The position numbers and the translations under genes were made by a program. Below, piece by piece: positions 5,663 to 14,066 of a DNA stretch of 14,066 nucleotides. Every line of letters begins with the position of its first letter. Within the stretch, counting starts at the first letter, position 1. The notes below the pieces were generated by a model. It was not told the DNA's origin and searched no databases. It saw nothing but the letters and a program-made list of their open reading frames with translations. This stretch comes from Leptolyngbya sp. (GTDB lineage: Bacteria; Cyanobacteriota; Cyanobacteriia; Leptolyngbyales; Leptolyngbyaceae): positions 1 to 14,066 of the forward strand of contig QBMH01000130.1 of NCBI GenBank assembly GCA_003249025.1, in the 5' to 3' direction.

Positions 5663-5672
5663 TGGTCTATCA
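5662..5672. repeat. IS630 terminal inverted repeat (transposase 3' side)
   Basis: GTGGTCTATCA is the exact reverse complement of 6880-6890. The transposase stop codon (complement of 5670-5672) lies inside it. Confidence 0.85.
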
Positions 5673-6350
5673 GTTTTCTATTTGTGGGTAAAGGCGTTTG
5701 AGACGAATGCGGGCATCAGCGGTTGCAAATTGCCAATCTACCGATTTTTGCGCTTGATTGCGCTGAGTGTACCAAGCAGTTGTTTCTCGTTCCAATGTTT
5801 CACGATCTCGAATCCGACGGTCTAGGCATTGCCGAGTCAGAGCGGACAGTTCGTTCTCAGCGATATTGAGCCAACTTCCATGTTTGGGAGTGTGGTGAAT
5901 TTCCAATCGTTCTACTAGACGGCGGGCAACAGTCGCCGGAAAGGCTTGATAGAGTGAGGCAAGTTTGTGAGTGTTCAACTGGTCACACACCAGAATCACC
6001 GTTTCGCTATCCGCATACTCTTCATCGAGTAAGCGCCTGATTTCTCTTGCCCAGTCAACCGCTGTCCTACGTTCACTCACGACGGCTTTGCGCCATCCAG
6101 CCAAAGGTTCTGTGAACATGAAGATGTTGGCGGTTCCATTGCGTTCATATTCATAATCTACCGATTCTGGCTGTCCAGGTTTAGCTGGCAATGGCAACCG
6201 GGTTTCTTTGACTAACTGTACGGGTTGCTCATCCATACAGATCACAGGACGCTTGGGATTGTAAGACAAGTGATAAATCTCTAGCACGTCTGACCTGTGA
6301 GCCACAAATTCGGCACTCTGTTCAGGCGGAATCACATACATTTGCCGCAA
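5670..6350 (-). CDS. IS630-family transposase OrfB (DDE catalytic part, probably made only as an OrfAB fusion by -1 frameshift)
   Basis: ...LKPHLRQMYVIPPEQSAEFVAHRSDVLEIY...VICMDEQPVQL...VILVCDQLNTHK...HHTPKHGSWLNIAENELSAL... are IS630 DDE-region motifs. The listed start is a TTG with no independent initiation context. The frame stays open upstream through the A7 run. The joined product would be ~377 aa. Confidence 0.85.
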   Translation of the reverse strand: MRQMYVIPPEQSAEFVAHRSDVLEIYHLSYNPKRPVICMDEQPVQLVKETRLPLPAKPGQPESVDYEYERNGTANIFMFTEPLAGWRKAVVSERRTAVDWAREIRRLLDEEYADSETVILVCDQLNTHKLASLYQAFPATVARRLVERLEIHHTPKHGSWLNIAENELSALTRQCLDRRIRDRETLERETTAWYTQRNQAQKSVDWQFATADARIRLKRLYPQIEN

Positions 6351-6358
6351 ATGTGGTT

Positions 6359-6802
6359 TTAGTTTGTTTTTTTCAGCACTTGCCGCACGGTTTCATGAGA
6401 AATTGCTGGCACAATCGCTAACTCGACTGCTCGGTCAGCGAGTAACCGCAATGTCCAACGAGCCTGACCCGCAGGCGGTTGACCACACCGGAGGGCAATC
6501 AGTTTCGCTTCTGCCTCTCCATCACAGACCGGCAGACGGGGGGGTGTTTTGCGGGGTTTGCGTTCCAAAGCAGCCTCTAACCCCTGTTCAACCAATCTCT
6601 GCCGCAGGTTGGCGACTGTGTTGCGGTGGCAACTCATGGCACTTGCGGCTTCTTCGTCTGTCCATCCCTGTCCATTCACATCAATGTTCAACAGAAGGTT
6701 GGCGTGTTTGATTTTGTAGGCGGCGGCTTTACCGGTCGATACCAAGCTTTGGAGTTCCTGTCGTTCTGCCGAACTTAACCGGACGATATAACGTTTAGGC
6801 AT
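6359..6802 (-). CDS. IS630-family transposase OrfA (helix-turn-helix DNA-binding part)
   Basis: MPKRYIVRLSSAERQELQSLVSTGKAAAYKIKHANLLL...RWTLRLLADRAVELAIVPAISHETVRQVLKKTN is typical of the IS630/Tc1-like N-terminal HTH region. The ATG at 6802 is preferred over the ORF-track start at 6868. The ORF ends just after an A7 run. Confidence 0.85.
   Translation of the reverse strand: MPKRYIVRLSSAERQELQSLVSTGKAAAYKIKHANLLLNIDVNGQGWTDEEAASAMSCHRNTVANLRQRLVEQGLEAALERKPRKTPPRLPVCDGEAEAKLIALRCGQPPAGQARWTLRLLADRAVELAIVPAISHETVRQVLKKTN
6367..6373 (-). promoter_or_regulatory. A7 slippery run, candidate -1 frameshift site joining OrfA and OrfB
   Basis: The minus strand reads CTG AAA AAA ACA AAC TAA. A -1 slip on the A-run gives VLKK|NKLKPHLRQMYVIPPE, restoring the LKKN.LKP junction typical of single-ORF IS630 transposases. 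Confidence 0.5.
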
Positions 6803-6879
6803 CGCAAGTTCCTCGAATATGAGGAGTGGGTTACTGTAAATCACTCCTCCATTCTCCCTTAAACTCACAAGCTTAGGTT

Positions 6880-6984: not shown

Positions 6985-7066
6985 AAATCAAGCGGTATCT
7001 TTTCTTTCAAAAATCTCCTAATTTAAGAGAGCTTCTTTTGGAAGACCGTGAGGTTGAGCGATCGCC

Positions 7067-8851
7067 ATGCAGCAATTAGACCGTCAAGATTCCTCGATGC
7101 AGTCCCTTCAGCGGGTGCTGAAAAGTTTGAATGGATACCGTTGGCTGTCAATGGGCGCATTGTTTAGCCTATTGCTGTTGACGGCGGCAAATGCGGTGAC
7201 TCCGCAACTGTTTCGCTGGGGAATTGATCAAGGAATTGCCAAACAAGATTTGCAAATTGTGTTGTATAGCGCCGGGGCAATGGTGGTGACCGCGATCGCC
7301 CGTGGCGTGTTCAACTTTGGTCAGAGCTTTTGGGCAGAAGCCGCGTCTCAAGGGGTTGCCTATGATTTGAGAAATCGGATTTTTAGCAAAATTCAAACCC
7401 TCAGTTTTAGCTATCACGATCAGGCACAGACTTCGCAACTGCTAACCCGCGTCACTAGCGACATTGAGCAAATTCGCACGTTCTTAGGCACCAGCCTGAT
7501 TCAGGTACTTAGCTCCGTGGTGACGCTGGTGACGATAGCCGTGATTTTGCTAGTGATGAACTGGCAGCTAGCCTTGATTACGCTGACGGTTGTGCCCATG
7601 GCGGGTTGGCTATTAGCCCGATTTCTGACGCGCAACGGCAAACTGTTTCGCCAAGTGCAGGAACAATTGAGCGACCTGAATGCCATTTTGCAGGAGAATT
7701 TGCTGGGGGTGCGGGTGGTGAAAGCGTTTGTGCGGGAGTCTACCGAGGCGCAACGTTATACAGCGTTGAATGATGCGCTGGTGACGGCGAATATGAAAAC
7801 TATTCGGGCGATTCACAATACGTTTCCAGTGATTTTTTTGCTGAGTAATTTGGTCACCTTAGTGGTGTTTGGCTACGGTGGGGCGCAGGTGATTGGCGGC
7901 AATTTTTCCATTGGCGAACTGGTGGCGTTTAACTCCTATTTGCTGGTGATTTTGCAGCCGATTTTACTGATTGGCTTTGCAGCACCGGCGATCGCCCAGG
8001 CGGCGGCTTCTGCGGAACGGGTGTATGAAGTGGTGGATGCCAAGGTGGAAATTCGCGATCGCCCCGATGCGGTGCCGTTTGAAACCTGTAGCGGCAGAAT
8101 CACCTTTGAAAACGTGTCGTTTCGCTATCCAGGAGCCACAACCGAAGCGCTCAAGGGCGTGTCGTTTGAGACGAAACCCAAGGAACTAATCGCCGTGTTG
8201 GGCATGACGGCTTCGGGCAAAAGCACGATTATGAACCTGATTCCGCGCTTTTATGATGTGACCATAGGAGCCGTGCGGATTGATGGGCGGGATGTGCGAG
8301 ATTTGACCCTAGCAAGCTTGCGATCGCACATTGGCATTGTCTTTCAAGAAACGACGCTGTTTTCGGGCACCCTGCGGGAAAACATTGCCTACGCCAAACC
8401 CAACGCCACCCTAGAGCAGGTGATTGAAGCGGCAACCACGGCACAAATCCACGACTTTATTGCCGCCTTGCCCGATGGCTATGAAACCATTGTGGGAGAG
8501 CGCGGTGTGGGCTTATCGGGGGGACAAAAGCAGCGGGTGGCGATCGCCCGAACCCTATTGACCGACTACAGCATTCTGATTTTGGATGACAGCACCTCGG
8601 CGGTGGATGCCCAAACCGCATCCCAAATTCAGGCGGCACTGGATGATCTGATGCGCCGCCGCGCCTGCGTTACCTTCGTCGTTGCCCAACGCATCAGCAC
8701 CGTGCAAAACGCCGATCGCATTTTTCTAATGGACAAAGGACGCTTGATGGCACAGGGCACCCACGAAGAATTGATGCAAACCAGTCCGCTCTATGGCGCA
8801 ATTTTAGAATCGCAAGTGGCGCAAGTGCCGGAGCGATCACTGCCAAAATAG
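7067..8851 (+). CDS. ABC exporter half-transporter (TMD-NBD fusion) with degenerate-type NBD (TM287-like chain)
   Basis: About 300 aa of N-terminal type-I exporter TMD. Walker A: GMTASGKST. Signature: LSGGQKQRVAIAR. Walker B: ILILDD, with Asp (GAC 8588-8590) in place of the catalytic Glu. The H-loop reads VAQRIST, with Gln (CAA 8687-8689) in place of His. Confidence 0.9.
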   Translation: MQQLDRQDSSMQSLQRVLKSLNGYRWLSMGALFSLLLLTAANAVTPQLFRWGIDQGIAKQDLQIVLYSAGAMVVTAIARGVFNFGQSFWAEAASQGVAYDLRNRIFSKIQTLSFSYHDQAQTSQLLTRVTSDIEQIRTFLGTSLIQVLSSVVTLVTIAVILLVMNWQLALITLTVVPMAGWLLARFLTRNGKLFRQVQEQLSDLNAILQENLLGVRVVKAFVRESTEAQRYTALNDALVTANMKTIRAIHNTFPVIFLLSNLVTLVVFGYGGAQVIGGNFSIGELVAFNSYLLVILQPILLIGFAAPAIAQAAASAERVYEVVDAKVEIRDRPDAVPFETCSGRITFENVSFRYPGATTEALKGVSFETKPKELIAVLGMTASGKSTIMNLIPRFYDVTIGAVRIDGRDVRDLTLASLRSHIGIVFQETTLFSGTLRENIAYAKPNATLEQVIEAATTAQIHDFIAALPDGYETIVGERGVGLSGGQKQRVAIARTLLTDYSILILDDSTSAVDAQTASQIQAALDDLMRRRACVTFVVAQRISTVQNADRIFLMDKGRLMAQGTHEELMQTSPLYGAILESQVAQVPERSLPK

Positions 8852-8923
8852 GTGTGAAGTTTCCCGAAGCCATGGGAATTCTTTTGGTAGAAAAGATATA
8901 GTCCCAACTCTCAAATCGCCCCA

Positions 8924-9418
8924 ATGACCAACAATCGCCTGCATCAAATTGAGGACCACTTAAACCTACTACGAGAGCAGCAAGCCTCTTTGGAACGAGA
9001 AGCTTTGCTGACAACAGGATTGCCAAAAACGCAAGCAGAGCAGCGATTGCGGCTAGAAATTAAGCCAAAAATTCGTGACTATGAGCAAGAGTATTGGCAG
9101 ATTTTAGCCGAGAATGCCAACCAGCTAAACATTCCTGAACCAAAGGCTGAAGTAATTGTGGCAGAGCTTGTCGAATCAGTGGGTCGGCTGGAGGTGCAGC
9201 AAGACTATTCGGCTGAAATGATGCAGGTTTTGTTGGAATTGCGGGACAAATTGAACCAACCGCAAGCTCCGGCAGCCATTAAGGTGAAATGGGCGTTGTC
9301 AGCAATTCCACCCTTTGTGAGTTTGGCAACGGAAGGCGAGTTAGATATAGAGAAGTTTTTGCAAACGAATTTTCCGACGTTTAGAAACTGGTCTAAGGTG
9401 CTGGCAAAAAAGTTGTAG
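8924..9418 (+). CDS. 164-aa hypothetical protein, probable N-terminal module of the downstream NB-ARC NTPase
   Basis: ATG at 8924. The first ~75 aa are highly charged and heptad-like (LNLLREQQASLEREALL...AEQRLRLEIKPKIRDYEQEYWQIL). They are followed by a helical/hydrophobic segment (AAIKVKWALSAIPPFVSLATEGEL). No known effector domain recognised. The ORF ends ...GCA AAA AAG TTG TAG, inside the frameshift cassette. Confidence 0.65.
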   Translation: MTNNRLHQIEDHLNLLREQQASLEREALLTTGLPKTQAEQRLRLEIKPKIRDYEQEYWQILAENANQLNIPEPKAEVIVAELVESVGRLEVQQDYSAEMMQVLLELRDKLNQPQAPAAIKVKWALSAIPPFVSLATEGELDIEKFLQTNFPTFRNWSKVLAKKL

Positions 9419-9455
9419 ACCACGATCGCCCACCCGATAGAACTGATCGTGGTCT
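9406..9455 (+). promoter_or_regulatory. candidate -1 programmed ribosomal frameshift cassette (A_AAA_AAG heptamer plus hairpin)
   Basis: The heptamer at 9406-9412 is in X_XXY_YYZ phase of the 8924 frame. After a 4-nt spacer comes a perfect 11-bp stem, AGACCACGATC (9417-9427) with GATCGTGGTCT (9445-9455), and a 17-nt loop. No U-tract follows. The -1 frame is open from 9397 through 10656. Confidence 0.5.
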
Positions 9456-9513
9456 GCCCAAATTTCAGGTTCCCTATCACCGGAATCAACACTTCACCGG
9501 GCGATCGCAACTG

Positions 9514-10656
9514 TTGCAAGATCTGCATACTGCACTCACGTCCACAGGCAAAGCCGCGCTCAATCAAGCAGCAGCACTCAGCGGATTGGGCGGAATTGGC
9601 AAAACCCAAACCGCCGTGGAGTATGCCTATCGCTATTTCTACGACACTCCCACCTATGAGTGGGTATTTTGGGTCAAGGCAGACACGGAATTAGCCCTGG
9701 TCACGGACTTGGCAGCGATCGCCCGATCGCTCGATTTGGGTGATGGCACCTTGGAAGAATTGGCAACGCGATCGCAGCAGTGGTTGAAGACTCATCAGGG
9801 CTGGTTGCTGATTTTTGATAACGCGGATCAGCCGGAAATTGTGAAACCCTGGTTGCCGCGCAATCCTCAGGGACGTGTATTGCTCACGTCACGGGCACCA
9901 CGATTTACCAGCCTGGGCATTAAAGCCCTGATCGCGGTGAAAAAATTCTCACTAGAAGAGTCGATCGCCTTTTTGCGCGATCGCGTAGCGTCTCCACAGG
10001 AGAATCGCACCGATCACCCTGAACTGGATGCCGCTGAACTCGCCGCCGTCACCGCCCTAGCTCAAGAATTAGACGGATTGCCGCTGGCATTGGAGCAAGC
10101 CGCTGCCTATATTGCCCAGATGGTCGTATCGTTTGCGGTGTATTGGCGCTACTACCAGCAGCAGCGTTTGGTCTTGCTAGAGAAAGGCTTACCCGAAACC
10201 GGAGACTATCCCCAATCCGTCGCCACTACCTGGCTATTGAACTTTGAGGAAGTGGAACAGCGATCGCCTGCCTCGGTGCCAATTTTGCAATTGAGCGCCG
10301 TGTTAGCCGCCGATGACATTCATGAACACCTATTGCTCGTATGTGCTGAGGAATTTGGCTTGCTAGCCTGCACCGATGAGTTGGCGCTAGCCGAGCAGTT
10401 AGCAGCCCTAGCAGATTTTTCCCTGATTCAGCGGGAGCGAGCCACAGCAAGCTACAGCATTCACCGCATGGTGCAGGCAGTCATCTGGCAGCGGTTGAGC
10501 GAAGCTGAACAGCAGACTTGGATAGAGCGTACCATCACTGGATTAAATGCCGCCTTTCCTGATGTGACGAAGTTTGAAAACTGGCAAATCTGTGGATATC
10601 TGGTGCGCCATGTGCAGGCGATCGCCCCTAGCCCTACCCAGATCTTTGGCTTCTAG
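9514..10656 (+). CDS. NB-ARC (STAND) P-loop NTPase, lacking both its own N-terminus and a C-terminal repeat sensor
   Basis: Walker A: GLGGIGKT (9583-9606). Walker B: WLLIFDNAD (9802-9828). RNBS-B-like: VLLTSR. Canonical GLPLAL (10075-10092) followed by EQAAAYI. The TTG at 9514 is the first possible start, but the frame is open back to 9397 and encodes conserved-looking LPKFQVPYHRNQHFTGRSQLLQDLH upstream of it. The true N-terminus is therefore probably supplied by frameshift from 8924-9412. May be annotated as a pseudogene. Confidence 0.8.
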   Translation: MQDLHTALTSTGKAALNQAAALSGLGGIGKTQTAVEYAYRYFYDTPTYEWVFWVKADTELALVTDLAAIARSLDLGDGTLEELATRSQQWLKTHQGWLLIFDNADQPEIVKPWLPRNPQGRVLLTSRAPRFTSLGIKALIAVKKFSLEESIAFLRDRVASPQENRTDHPELDAAELAAVTALAQELDGLPLALEQAAAYIAQMVVSFAVYWRYYQQQRLVLLEKGLPETGDYPQSVATTWLLNFEEVEQRSPASVPILQLSAVLAADDIHEHLLLVCAEEFGLLACTDELALAEQLAALADFSLIQRERATASYSIHRMVQAVIWQRLSEAEQQTWIERTITGLNAAFPDVTKFENWQICGYLVRHVQAIAPSPTQIFGF

Positions 10657-10689
10657 TTCATCTGCTGATTTACCCCTTGCCATCTCATA

Positions 10690-12450
10690 TCATCGCAATT
10701 GCTTGAATAAATCCATCAGTTTACGCTTGCGGGCATGAATGGACTGGAGTTGATTGAAATATGCCGTCCACGTTGATTGTTGCCCTGAGTGCAGGTAGGC
10801 AGCTTTGGCGTGTTTTAGCCATTGCACTGCTTCGTGGTAGCGATCGGCTTTGCCTTGCTCCATAATCGGTTCTGCCCGTTGACGAGCCGCTGCAATCACC
10901 CAATCGGAATGAGTGGCTACCACGGCTTGCATGACGCGATGCACCAACTCGGAGCGGTAGTAGGTGTCAGTTTGCACGGCTGCGATCGCATCATCCAGCA
11001 ACCCTTCATGCAGAAAAATATCAACCTTTGCATCCCTCGCTGCCCATTCCTGCGTCTGGCGTAGAATTTCCAGCAACTCTGGTTTAATGTCGTTCCACTG
11101 GTGAGCCGCGAAATGCGCCACTCGTTGATAGTCTGCAAAACTAGGACGCAGTTTGAAGGCAAGAATGCTGGCATCTAGAGCGATTTCGGAGTTTCCTAAC
11201 CCTTCTGCCAGTTCACTTGTCCAACTTGCCAGAGTATACCGACAATTTCCAGGTAAAGGCAGTCCAAGCTGAGCAATCGCCAACGCCTCAGATAAATGAT
11301 TGCTTTCTCGTAAGGTTTTTGCCAGGGCAAACGCTTCTTCAGCCGTGGTCATGCGCGATCGGGCTGTGGTCATCGCTTCCTCAATGTTGCCGATCTCCGC
11401 CAATCGCGTCAGATACTGCACCATTAATCCTTCTGTTTTGGCTAAGTTCAAGTACTCAGCCTGCTGTCCCTGCCGATCCAATATTTGCAGCCGAACCAAT
11501 GCCAGATCTTGACCGCAGGGTGAATTTAACCGCTCTGGATCGGAATAATGCCCGCCTTGCAATGCTTGCTGTAAGTCTGGATCAGTCCACCCCTGCTGCA
11601 ATGCCGCTAGGCTCATCGAAAAATCCCCGTCTAGGGCATCCTGCCATTCTTCTAACATCAAGCGCAGATCGACGGCTTCAGGTGGCGAAAGATCGATGCT
11701 GAGAACCGCTTCTGTCCAGGCTTCGTTGAGCGACTCGACAATTGGAAAAGAATCTCCCCCATAATCGCTGATGTCGTCCCATTCATCGACACAAGCAGCA
11801 GTAATCGCCTCTAGAATTGCGATCGCGCTAGTCCCATCTTCATTCCTGGCAAATGCTAAAGCTTTCTCAATGATTTCCAGCAATTGATCGGTAAACGGAT
11901 CATCCTCATAGCCTTCCTCCAGCGATCGCACGCCTTCTCGCAAAATATGTCTCACCTGCCGCCGAAACGGAGCTACATCAATTGCGGTACGACGGCGGGG
12001 CACAGCCACTTGCGCCGCTGGAGCCGGGTTCGACATCAGCATCACCTGGAGATCGACTGCCTCGATCAGTTCCGGTTGCTCTTTGACCAATGCTTGCACT
12101 AATCGTTGGGTTTGCACGTGATCGAGGCGATCAAGCAATTGGGGCAGCGTTGGTCGCACTTCAACGCGATCGGGTTGCCGCACCCAAGCCAGTGCTGCTG
12201 CCACAATATGTTTACACCAGCCTTCATAGTCATAAGGGCAGGTACAGCCAGCCGAAGTAATACCCCCAGAATCAAACTGGAGACTGACGCGGTAAGGAGT
12301 TACTTCACTGCCCTCCACGTCTGCATAGATCGTGTTGCCTCGTTGCACCAGATCGGCGACGGCTCCTTGCTGGTAATAGGCTTCTCCCCGGCTAAAGGAA
12401 TTGCTCGTTGCCTGATGCTGAATGGTTGTTATCGAAATTGGTGCTGTCAT
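10690..12450 (-). CDS. SWIM zinc-finger domain protein with long alpha-helical C-terminal region
   Basis: The N-terminal region ...YRVSLQFDSGGITSAGCTCPYDYEGWCKHIVAAALAW carries the CxCx7CxH SWIM signature (C69, C71, C79, H81; nt 12208-12246). The remaining ~480 aa are helical and repeat-like. Several HIP1 sites lie inside it, so it looks resident. Confidence 0.8.
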   Translation of the reverse strand: MTAPISITTIQHQATSNSFSRGEAYYQQGAVADLVQRGNTIYADVEGSEVTPYRVSLQFDSGGITSAGCTCPYDYEGWCKHIVAAALAWVRQPDRVEVRPTLPQLLDRLDHVQTQRLVQALVKEQPELIEAVDLQVMLMSNPAPAAQVAVPRRRTAIDVAPFRRQVRHILREGVRSLEEGYEDDPFTDQLLEIIEKALAFARNEDGTSAIAILEAITAACVDEWDDISDYGGDSFPIVESLNEAWTEAVLSIDLSPPEAVDLRLMLEEWQDALDGDFSMSLAALQQGWTDPDLQQALQGGHYSDPERLNSPCGQDLALVRLQILDRQGQQAEYLNLAKTEGLMVQYLTRLAEIGNIEEAMTTARSRMTTAEEAFALAKTLRESNHLSEALAIAQLGLPLPGNCRYTLASWTSELAEGLGNSEIALDASILAFKLRPSFADYQRVAHFAAHQWNDIKPELLEILRQTQEWAARDAKVDIFLHEGLLDDAIAAVQTDTYYRSELVHRVMQAVVATHSDWVIAAARQRAEPIMEQGKADRYHEAVQWLKHAKAAYLHSGQQSTWTAYFNQLQSIHARKRKLMDLFKQLR

Positions 12451-13557: not shown

Positions 13558-14066
13558 GTGGCTTTCCAATTATTAGATGATGGGTGAGGAGGATAAGATA
13601 GAAGGAGATCGCGTTACCTAGTGGAATGACCAAAAAATATATTGTTGATCTGACTTTAGAAGAGCGTGAATATCTCGAAGAATTTACCACGACTGGACGA
13701 CATGCAGCTTATCAAATCACCCGTGCTCGGATCTTACTGAAAGCCGACCGGAATCAACCAGGCGGTAGTTGGTGTGATGCAGAAATCCAAGCAGCCCTAG
13801 ACGTGGGAGTGGCCACCGTCGAACGAGTGCGACGATGTTTTGTCGAAGTTGGATTAGAAGCAAGTTTGAAACGGCAGCCAGGGGGTGGACGCAAACGCAA
13901 ACTCGATGGCGAGCAAGAAGCTCATTTAATCGCATTGCGCTGTAGTGATGCGCCTCCAGGACAGGCTCGTTGGACGCTGCGCTTACTGGCAGACCGGATG
14001 GTGGCGTTGGGGCAGGTCGAATCGATTAGCGATGAAACCGTGCGTCAGGTGCTAAAAAAAACGAAC
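13558..14066 (+). mobile_element. second, divergent IS630-family element (left end only, continues past window)
   Basis: The candidate left end is TA|GTGGCTTTCCA at 13556-13568. It shares GTGG..T..CA with the IR of the first copy and sits in a CTAG. The OrfA ATG is 68 nt inside. The right end is not in the window, so the boundary is provisional. A second CTAGTGG at 13618-13624 is an alternative, but it lies only a few nt from the ATG. Confidence 0.7.
13626..14066 (+). CDS. IS630-family transposase OrfA (open to window end)
   Basis: MTKKYIVDLTLEEREYLEEFTTTGRHAAYQITRARILLKAD...GQARWTLRLLADRMVALGQVESISDETVRQVLKKTN is roughly half identical by eye to the OrfA at 6359-6802. It ends in CTA AAA AAA ACG AAC, with the same in-phase A-run. 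It is missing from the ORF track because there is no stop before the window edge. Confidence 0.85.
   Translation, partial: MTKKYIVDLTLEEREYLEEFTTTGRHAAYQITRARILLKADRNQPGGSWCDAEIQAALDVGVATVERVRRCFVEVGLEASLKRQPGGGRKRKLDGEQEAHLIALRCSDAPPGQARWTLRLLADRMVALGQVESISDETVRQVLKKTN

Follow-up and report, generated by a model that had tools for sequence, protein, structure and literature searches.

Conserved -1 frameshifts in non-mobile chromosomal genes of bacteria are, to our knowledge, few. The slippery heptamer A_AAA_AAG drives -1 frameshifting in Escherichia coli dnaX and in many insertion sequence (IS) elements (PMC3711429), and effector-associated domains (EADs) have been defined as homotypic coupling adaptors on the basis of their architectural signature (Kaur et al. 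2020, PMC7159879). Taken singly, frameshifting of this kind, NLR-like STAND proteins and coupling adaptors have all been described; as far as could be traced, their combination has not. No literature on frameshifting in STAND or NB-ARC genes was found (subscription-only papers lay outside the scope), and the combination is not mentioned in the main papers on conflict systems, bacterial NLRs, Avs proteins and Bell/BASS pairs, in the recoding review, in the GeneTack paper, or in a 2026 survey of cyanobacterial RNA structures. Such a combination is proposed here for a locus on a contig of 14,066 nucleotides from a metagenome-assembled genome of Leptolyngbya sp. (the window, meaning this whole stretch of DNA), in which an open reading frame (ORF) for a helical N-terminal module is followed in the -1 frame by an ORF for an NB-ARC NTPase; the two encoded products are identical to the database proteins DCF22_16080 and DCF22_16085.

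This paper describes the sequence anatomy of the module-NB-ARC locus, the family-wide conservation and covariation of its slip site and hairpin, the shuffling of the modules that are joined there, and the 3' truncation of the copy in the window. The two ORFs are likely to constitute one recoded gene, in which a conserved -1 slip site would give either the free module or a module-NB-ARC protein. The stretch 8924-10656, given as one entry in an earlier note on the same DNA, is not a single ORF but two frames joined at 9406-9412. That note had entertained a free short form identical in sequence to the N-terminal part of a long form, which is what the locus appears to be built to produce, and the placement of the locus among NLR-like conflict systems was retained.

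In the window, the two frames meet at CTG GCA AAA AAG TTG TAG (9401-9418). The -1 frame is closed by a TAA at 9394-9396, is open from 9397 and stops at 10656, and a shift at the heptamer would join 8924-9412 to 9406-10656 in a predicted transframe product of 577 aa with the junction ...SKVLAKK/VVDHDRPP... (the slash marks the change of frame). The heptamer is followed by a predicted hairpin with the core GACCACGATCG/CGATCGTGGTC, with 2 nt separating it from the extended stem and 5 nt from the core stem, and with a free energy of -21.6 kcal/mol that was equaled in none of 60 control windows taken from the same genes. The scan detected no promoter-like site between the two ORFs and no terminator-like site on the + strand between them or at the hairpin, and an Rfam scan of the window gave no family match. 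Upstream, a terminator-like hairpin with a T-rich tail (8861-8878, + strand) lies 10 nt past the stop of an ABC transporter gene, which suggests that the module gene begins its own transcription unit.

The slip site is a property of a family and not of this copy. A genome scan yielded 79 loci from Leptolyngbyaceae, Microcoleus, Coleofasciculaceae, Nostocales, Pseudanabaena, Synechococcales and others, complete genomes included, and slip sites were counted in the 75 loci with a complete C-terminus, a -1 ORF being considered long at 150 codons or more. Heptamer and long -1 ORF occurred together in 62 of these 75 loci (A_AAA_AAG in 49 and A_AAA_AAA in 13, with -1 ORFs of 159-1176 codons), the heptamer only in 4, neither in 9, and a long -1 ORF without the heptamer in none (Fisher 5.7e-9); a downstream ORF in the +1 frame was likewise found in 0 of the 75. 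The heptamer is in phase with the reading frame (X_XXY_YYZ) at every locus, the base that follows it is T in 46 of 49 loci, and a 0-frame stop is encountered 0-1 codon away in most, while the -1 frame opens only 3 codons ahead of the site in 31 of 62 loci. The site is retained among proteins with as little as 33% identity, and AKK tails are spelled GCA AAA AAG in 48 of 50 cases, where 8.4% would be expected from the Ala and Lys codon usage of the same genes. Loci without a downstream ORF have decayed sites instead (GCG AAA AGG, GCC AAA AAA T, GGA AAA AAC), and the heptamer therefore appears to be kept for the downstream ORF and not for the AKK peptide. A tetramer resembling a Shine-Dalgarno (SD) sequence is present within positions -18 to -3 in 32 of 49 loci, where it overlaps conserved Lys-Gly or Lys-Ala codons.

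Two groups of loci display what is left once the downstream ORF is gone. In Tychonema and Oscillatoriales (L006 6496-6540, L007 1173-1240 and L079 230-270) the degenerate GGA AAA AAC is not followed by a STAND ORF, and a tandem array of GGGCATA/GGGCATT-type heptamers stands after the module ORF instead. In Microcoleus sp. A006_D1 (L008/L082) a protein with a TRADD-N domain ahead of the module retains GCA AAA AAG TCC TAG and a partial hairpin, its -1 frame ends after 10 codons, and the divergent gene upstream of it is a CyanoTRADDas_TM gene; here the downstream STAND module seems to have been lost recently.

Wherever the arrangement is annotated, gene callers give two genes, and adjacent effector/NLR gene pairs are known in filamentous bacteria (10.1101/2020.01.06.895854), so that the NB-ARC ORF might be conceived as the second of two operon genes, translated independently from the CTG that NCBI annotates as its start (9454, coordinate by arithmetic) or from a TTG at 9514. 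The coding content of the region makes this highly unlikely. In the window, the -1 frame lacks any ATG, GTG or TTG between 9397 and 9513, and the segment FQVPYxRNxHFTGR (FQVPYHRNQHFTGR, 9463-9504), which is conserved in the window clade and has synonymous to nonsynonymous differences of 4:2, 6:3 and 7:3, is encoded ahead of the first possible start; the 16 codons that overlap the hairpin exhibit no synonymous excess (2:6, 3:3 and 1:8). Across the family there is no conserved start codon, the annotated starts differ among orthologues, and, whichever start codon is allowed, the first one in the -1 ORF comes a median of 39 codons past the site, and in six Nostocales loci after the P-loop (Walker A). 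Moreover, coupled translation of two genes needs neither a strict -1 relation nor a synonymously fixed heptamer, and it does not account for the in-frame single-A variants and distant in-frame fusions described below.

The hairpin recurs in most of the A_AAA_AAG loci as a stem of 8-19 bp that starts 2-7 nt past the heptamer (median spacer 5 nt), with arm sequences that are quite different from locus to locus. The 50 nt past the heptamer fold at -13.6 kcal/mol, versus -8.9 kcal/mol in control windows (Wilcoxon p 8.5e-7, n=49). For 28 loci with 5' arms differing by at least 4 nt, each arm was paired with the downstream region of its own locus and with those of the other loci; own regions paired at -15.4 and foreign regions at -10.4 (p 8.8e-6), and the own region was the best partner in 7 of 28. 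The predicted hairpin is conserved in structure and not in sequence, and its arms covary. RNAalifold, applied to a MAFFT alignment of 24 slip-site regions, returned no consensus pairs, because loop lengths vary and the 3' arms do not align.

Natural in-frame versions of the junction are also encountered. In L009 (Microcoleus) an A7 run, GCA AAA AAA GTC GTA GAC, holds one A more, and ...AKKVVDH... is read in a single frame, while L045 has A10 where other Nostocales loci have A9 and encodes an 876-aa module-nSTAND4 protein with the junction of the predicted transframe product. In more distant relatives, in-frame fusions that have no slip site are seen (P0215, 1169 aa, with a STAND NTPase; P0226, with a transmembrane segment and tetratricopeptide repeats, TPRs; and P0284). 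No called protein across the junction was found in the close clade, which fits gene callers not joining frames. The +1A variants also have a bearing on transcriptional slippage, in which RNA polymerase would add one A in the A-run and ribosomal frameshifting would play no part, since one added A leads to the same frame as a -1 shift. Programmed transcriptional realignment at A-runs of n > 7, and nine A in Thermus dnaX, are cited in the GeneTack paper (PMC3711429), and within the family a Nostocales subgroup has an A9 run without a hairpin signal. The window type, however, has only six A followed by G, which is below n > 7; its heptamer is phased with the reading frame at every locus, its covarying hairpin is placed 3-7 nt on, where a ribosomal stimulator is expected, and its 0-frame stop follows directly, and slippage of the polymerase is accordingly judged improbable as the explanation.

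In the Nostocales subgroup itself, ATT AAA AAA AAA CAG replaces A_AAA_AAG (L041, L043, L049-L051, L053, L055-L058, L060 and L064). These loci give no hairpin stability signal, their module is joined to nSTAND4, and their first start lies past the P-loop; the pattern suggests transcriptional slippage or hairpin-independent shifting for this subgroup.

Downstream of the site, the modules vary. The -1 ORFs encode NB-ARC-type P-loop NTPases with TPR arrays in 29 loci, NACHT in 7 and nSTAND4 in 10 loci of the Nostocales type, besides WD40 alone, a transmembrane segment with TPRs, and unknown domains; the match of the L043 nSTAND4 to the PADLOC candidate PDC-S60 begins at profile position 186. The module of L002 has 89% identity to that of L003 and 70% to that of the window, and its NTPase has 89% identity to that of the window and 33% to that of L003, while the window and L001 have modules that are 73% and NTPases that are 30% identical. 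As judged from these identities, the phylogenies of module and NTPase disagree. In L003 (Leptolyngbya sp. Cla-17) the upstream ABC transporter shares 96% amino acid identity with that of the window, and the DNA homology that runs from this gene through the module (window 7019-9413, L003 4099-6496) ends at the slip site, past which L003 continues into a different NB-ARC-TPR protein (31% identity). Since the homology breaks at this point and the NTPases have been swapped, the putative recoding site therefore also appears to be the boundary of downstream-module exchange.

As far as their genomic context was available, proteins that bear other domains ahead of the module share the arrangement in part. 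A gene for a TIR-module protein (L081) ends GCA AAA AAG TAA, behind which come a hairpin and then a STAND/TPR ORF in the -1 frame, and in two TRADD-N-module genes (L004 and L021) the same site leads into NB-ARC-TPR; two SNF2-module genes (L024 and L037) lack both the slip site and the downstream ORF. The recoding design is apparently ancestral to a large cyanobacterial family, in which a constant module is combined with interchangeable STAND or repeat modules. The contig of the TIR-module gene contains two more small-protein/STAND pairs (L081 1507-4806 and 8253-10337), in which a single in-frame stop (TAA 1939-1941 and TGA 8916-8918, respectively) stands between the two proteins and the NB-ARC frame opens right after it. 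Their upstream proteins end in G/Q-rich sequence, ...GWQTKVEGGTAYIGEIHIQGQPD and ...GWQINVSGGTVNIGNPPGQP, and stop-codon readthrough or BASS-like amyloid motifs could be involved.

The N-terminal module had been described in the earlier note as unrecognised, which was borne out by the databases, and as a coiled coil with a hydrophobic helix, which is not the whole picture: its confident AlphaFold (AF2) model (predicted local distance difference test, pLDDT, 88.9; predicted template modelling score, pTM, 0.80) is a compact seven-helix domain on a long helical hairpin. Searches with the module gave no significant match in Pfam (as a single sequence), NCBIfam, PADLOC or a PDB sequence profile, and a Foldseek comparison with PDB and BFVD yielded nothing below E 0.2. 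Fragments of saposin or Lon (E 0.04-1) were regarded as noise, as were ESCRT-III and IpaD as relatives in fold (Foldseek E > 1). None of 49 module members matched a Pfam EAD or Death-fold model at E <= 1, in a Pfam library that does hold EAD models, as EAD11 was detected with it on the homologous NTPase P0353.

The module is real and conserved. The 164-aa query retrieved 53 stand-alone homologues with 43-88% identity, annotated as hypothetical proteins of about 160-175 aa from filamentous cyanobacteria, with AKK as the C-terminal tail in nearly all of them, and a profile search of 1.84 billion representatives gave 291 module clusters at 50% identity; at least 8 genomes hold two or more module loci. 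In many proteins the module forms the extreme C-terminus, behind TRADD-N, TIR, SNF2 helicase, Roc-COR or NACHT NTPase domains, and close homologues of the window NTPase have an in-frame TIR, SEFIR, EAD11 or HTH at the position that the module occupies here, in agreement with the suggestion that it is a conserved N-terminal module in its own right. Because it ends proteins of the TIR, TRADD-N, SNF2, Roc-COR and NACHT types, the module may act like an effector-associated coupling adaptor, non-enzymatic and of the EAD or CARD kind.

The NTPase belongs to the NB-ARC (AP-ATPase) class of STAND proteins, as judged by its motifs, its Pfam profile and its fold of nucleotide-binding domain, helical domain 1 and winged-helix domain. 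The motif set GLGGIGKT, LLIFDNAD, LLTSR and GLPLAL was complete, as had been noted before, and all four were located at 9583-10092 (Table 1). In the -1 product Pfam detected NB-ARC (E 9e-8, 32.1 bits versus a cut-off of 23.5) and DUF7779 (E 8e-12). The AF2 model of the 416-aa product had a pLDDT of 90.3 and a pTM of 0.86, and its best PDB neighbours in Foldseek were Apaf-1, CED-4 and the plant proteins NRC and ZAR1 (about 380-410 columns, E 1e-9 to 1e-12). Neither the module nor the NB-ARC product matches any PADLOC model; around the family, PADLOC matches are limited to the neighbouring SWIM gene (PDC-S62) and the nSTAND4 module of Nostocales (PDC-S60).

Table 1. Positions of the elements of the module-NB-ARC locus in the window.
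Feature	Coordinates	Strand	Remarks
Helical-module ORF (short product)	8924..9418	+	164 aa; ATG start; tail LAKKL, then stop; last codons GCA AAA AAG TTG TAG
SD-like AAGGTG, possible upstream stimulator	9395..9400	+	5 nt before heptamer; overlaps -1-frame stop TAA 9394-9396; putative role
Slippery heptamer A_AAA_AAG, proposed -1 shift site	9406..9412	+	In phase with 0 frame (GCA AAA AAG); junction ...LAKK/VVDH...
-1-frame ORF: linker, NB-ARC NTPase and DUF7779	9406..10656	+	416 codons
Hairpin, proposed 3' stimulator	9415..9457	+	14-bp stem, arms 9415-9428 and 9444-9457; 15-nt loop; no U-tract
0-frame stop TAG	9416..9418	+	One codon past heptamer
Walker A, GLGGIGKT	9583..9606	+	G60-G63 and K66 invariant in 69 homologues; G65 and T67 kept in at least 90%
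Walker B, LLIFDNAD	9805..9828	+	Invariant or nearly so in 69 homologues
Sensor-1 / RNBS-B-like, LLTSR	9880..9894	+	Invariant or nearly so in 69 homologues
GxP motif of helical domain 1, GLPLAL	10075..10092	+	Invariant or nearly so in 69 homologues
MHD-like motif of winged-helix domain, SIHRMV	10456..10473	+	H353 invariant in 11 close homologues
HIP1 octamer GCGATCGC, deletion/rearrangement junction	10618..10625	+	End of homology to TPR-bearing orthologues
Novel tail PSPTQIFGF and stop, in place of TPR sensor array	10626..10656	+	From alignment with orthologues
Convergent SWIM zinc-finger gene	10690..12450	-	586 aa; first ~140 residues match PADLOC PDC-S62

A C-terminal repeat sensor of TPR, WD40 or leucine-rich repeat type is usual in NLR-like members, and none was found in the window protein by Pfam or by a window-wide TPR search, in accordance with the observation in the earlier note that the ORF stops soon after NB-ARC. 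The stop lies 10 codons past HVQAIA and exactly 33 bp (10657-10689) from the stop of the convergent SWIM gene, and no TPR remnant was detected elsewhere in the window or in another frame, so that a displaced or hidden repeat array was rejected, as the note had also concluded with regard to other frames. Close homologues of the NTPase (70-88% identity) nearly all continue into TPR arrays; the window protein aligns with them through ...CGYLVRHVQAIA and then runs into the unrelated PSPTQIFGF where the others begin their first TPR. In NCBIfam, it covers only positions 3-373 of the 830 of FxSxx_TPR (NF040586), below the cut-off.

The closest orthologue, L080 (on a metagenome contig), has a module with 88-89% identity, the same GCA AAA AAG TTG TAG, a related hairpin and a -1 ORF of 660 codons with about five TPR units, and its DNA is 87% identical to that of the window over 8841-10626, where the homology ends. 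Homology to L005 ends at 10625, and TPR-coding DNA is found after the early stop of L005 itself. The sensor-less state is therefore derived, since L080 continues into TPRs and homology ends at the HIP1 site, and the idea of a designed sensor-less architecture is not supported, the closest orthologue having the order module, slip site, NB-ARC and TPRs. The loss of the repeat array was secondary and probably took place during a rearrangement by which the convergent SWIM gene came in as well. Alignment as a 3'-deleted fragment of full-length orthologues had been named in the earlier note as the mark of a truncated pseudogene, and for the 3' end this is what is seen, with the homology to L080 and L005 breaking off at 10618-10625.

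Such a deletion would be expected if the locus were an old module-NB-ARC-TPR gene that had acquired a frameshift mutation and lost its 3' part, without a functional product. Besides the true absence of the TPR array relative to the closest orthologues, the premature stop in the nearest relative L005 with TPR DNA still downstream, the diverged IS630 copy and foreign convergent SWIM gene that flank the locus, and the repeat-less state of about 1 in 10 close NB-ARC homologues in the database can be counted on the side of decay. This account is nevertheless very improbable. The frame change that had been thought to be picked up by one ageing gene is a conserved A_AAA_AAG recoding site, and heptamer, frame and covarying hairpin recur in 62 related loci across cyanobacterial orders, in complete genomes and in L080 too. 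In the window, NTPase motifs, slip site and hairpin are all intact, and on the window branch 27 changes over 381 codons are synonymous and 7 are nonsynonymous, versus 18 and 14 on the branch of the TPR-bearing L080; these counts rest on three or four taxa and can neither date the TPR deletion nor separate selection before it from selection after it. By these measures the copy carries no visible decay, and of the pseudogene hypothesis only the loss of the 3' part was upheld. Moreover, an adaptor joined to NB-ARC without repeats can function, as in CED-4.

The SWIM gene, whose adjacency in orthologues had been put forward as a check, is without a homologue in all 80 related loci that were compared and is a neighbour in none of them, and it was rejected as a functional partner. 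It looks like an independent defence-island passenger that was placed beside the truncated gene. The window is rich in HIP1 (GCGATCGC), with 27 copies in 14 kb versus 0.36 expected, in line with the earlier description of the locus; six copies lie within the NB-ARC ORF. HIP1 is absent from the module ORF and its leader (8548-9500, a gap of about 950 nt, where the window as a whole has about one copy per 520 nt), and this contrast with the NB-ARC ORF is not significant by itself and fits differing histories of the two modules.

Elsewhere in the window, an IS630-family transposase (5670-6868, - strand) is split across frames into an HTH ORF (6359-6868) and a DDE_3 ORF (5670-6350) and contains no HIP1 copy. 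Its HTH ORF ends CTG AAA AAA ACA AAC TAA, with an A7 run of the slippery kind that is typical where IS630 transposases are expressed by frameshifting, which makes it a second and ordinary recoding-type site in the window. A second, diverged IS630-type orfA (13626-14066, + strand), with about 70% nucleotide identity to 6362-6523, overruns the contig end and probably accounts for the stop of the assembly there.

For the recoded gene, the following course of events is proposed. Ribosomes that translate the module would reach the heptamer, and most would terminate two codons on and release the free module, while a fraction would slip back one base and proceed in the NB-ARC frame to give the 577-aa module-NB-ARC protein; the slip would be assisted by the hairpin, by the 0-frame stop next to the site and perhaps by the AAGGTG ahead of it. 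In members with C-terminal repeats, these would sense a trigger, upon which the NTPase would oligomerise and cluster the N-terminal modules. The clustered modules could then recruit, by homotypic contact, excess free module or module-tagged partners such as the TIR-, TRADD-N-, SNF2-, Roc-COR- and NACHT-module proteins, at a ratio of sensor to adaptor that would be fixed by the efficiency of frameshifting. By analogy with CARD-only proteins, the short form could equally be a cap or inhibitor. A role in defence or programmed cell death would be consistent with the family membership and with the neighbours (TRADD-N, TIR and PADLOC candidates). On the broadest scale, and only tentatively, a large NLR-like family of immunity or cell-death proteins may use programmed -1 frameshifting so that few activated STAND sensors nucleate many free adaptors, or effector-adaptors such as the TIR-module proteins, in an amplifier resembling ASC/CARD, with the site doubling as the boundary for sensor swaps.

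Several points weigh against this interpretation. We infer the frameshifting itself, its efficiency and the 577-aa protein from sequence comparison. The loci share phylogeny, and the p-values given above overstate their independence. A clear hairpin is missing in the NACHT subgroup, in L004 and in the Nostocales A9-run subgroup, which may employ a different mechanism, for example transcriptional slippage, a pseudoknot or another structure. In E. coli the shiftiness of A_AAA_AAG needs the absence of tRNA-Lys(CUU), and the SD-like element, at 5 nt from the site, is closer than the spacing typical of dnaX. The homotypic-adaptor role is drawn from architecture patterns, the module having neither a Pfam EAD or Death-fold match nor a structural neighbour. 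Finally, the TPR loss might have inactivated this particular copy recently, which is rather unlikely.

If the broadest of these readings is correct, it would add a new and widespread class of bacterial chromosomal recoding and a new regulatory principle for prokaryotic NLRs. With 62 sites in 75 loci, covarying stimulators and natural in-frame controls, the family would be a notable addition to bacterial recoding. In current annotation, the genes are called a hypothetical protein and an NTPase that is clipped at its N-terminus and given an arbitrary or non-canonical start codon (CTG here). Neither the module nor the connection between the ORFs would therefore be picked up in domain-architecture surveys of bacterial NLR-like proteins. 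For immunity, the design suggests a hard-wired ratio of NLR-like sensor to adaptor or effector, as a bacterial parallel to assemblies nucleated by CARD or PYD and to fungal and bacterial amyloid-motif signalling. For evolution, a slip site that is also the boundary of sensor-module exchange between loci, and between closely related genomes, bears on how NLR repertoires diversify. In the window, the frame change appears to be designed, and the missing sensor is a secondary loss.

Compared with described systems, the family resembles Avs and bacterial NACHT proteins in its succession of N-terminal effector or adaptor, STAND NTPase and C-terminal repeat sensor. It differs from them in the lack of a PADLOC match for the window proteins and in the presumably non-enzymatic module at the effector position, and in the window the sensor is missing. 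The small protein immediately 5' of an NB-ARC/TPR or NACHT gene in filamentous cyanobacteria recalls the Bell/BASS pairs of filamentous bacteria (10.1101/2020.01.06.895854), and in both cases a shared element could pass a signal from an oligomerised NLR to the small protein. What the two genes of those pairs, each with its own initiation, share is a short amyloid motif, whereas here it would be a whole module of 163 aa that is shared through frameshifting; no Bell domain or BASS-like motif was found in the window, and no short motif is common to the C-terminus of the module and the start of the NB-ARC ORF.

The NTPase has its best structural matches in CED-4 and Apaf-1 (Foldseek E 1e-10 to 1e-12, template modelling score up to 0.68), at a sequence identity of only about 15-18%. 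With an N-terminal adaptor (CARD in CED-4), NB-ARC and no C-terminal repeats, the architecture left in the window is that of CED-4, although the module is not a Death fold by the tests that were run and the repeat-less state in the window reflects a deletion and not an ancestral design. Like EAD1-11 and bDLD (PMC7159879), the module is a small, all-helical and apparently non-enzymatic domain that is found on a core NTPase and on TIR, TRADD-N, helicase, Roc-COR and NACHT proteins, and genomes of multicellular cyanobacteria hold several copies of it, joined to partner modules that vary rapidly. Unlike the EADs, it matches no Pfam EAD model and is about twice the typical EAD size, and its free and NTPase-fused copies would arise from one gene by recoding and not from adjacent genes.

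Finally, -1 frameshifting in dnaX and in the IS3 and IS1 elements has in common with this locus the identical heptamer and phase, a stem-loop a few nucleotides on and possibly an SD-like element. As in dnaX, two products sharing an N-terminus would be made, and as in OrfA/OrfAB of IS3 the shift would extend the protein into a long second ORF without a start of its own, whereas in dnaX the shift truncates it. The host is here a chromosomal NLR-like STAND family, known from sequence alone, and not a replication gene or a transposase, and, in contrast to dnaX and IS3, the site marks the boundary at which downstream modules are apparently exchanged between loci.

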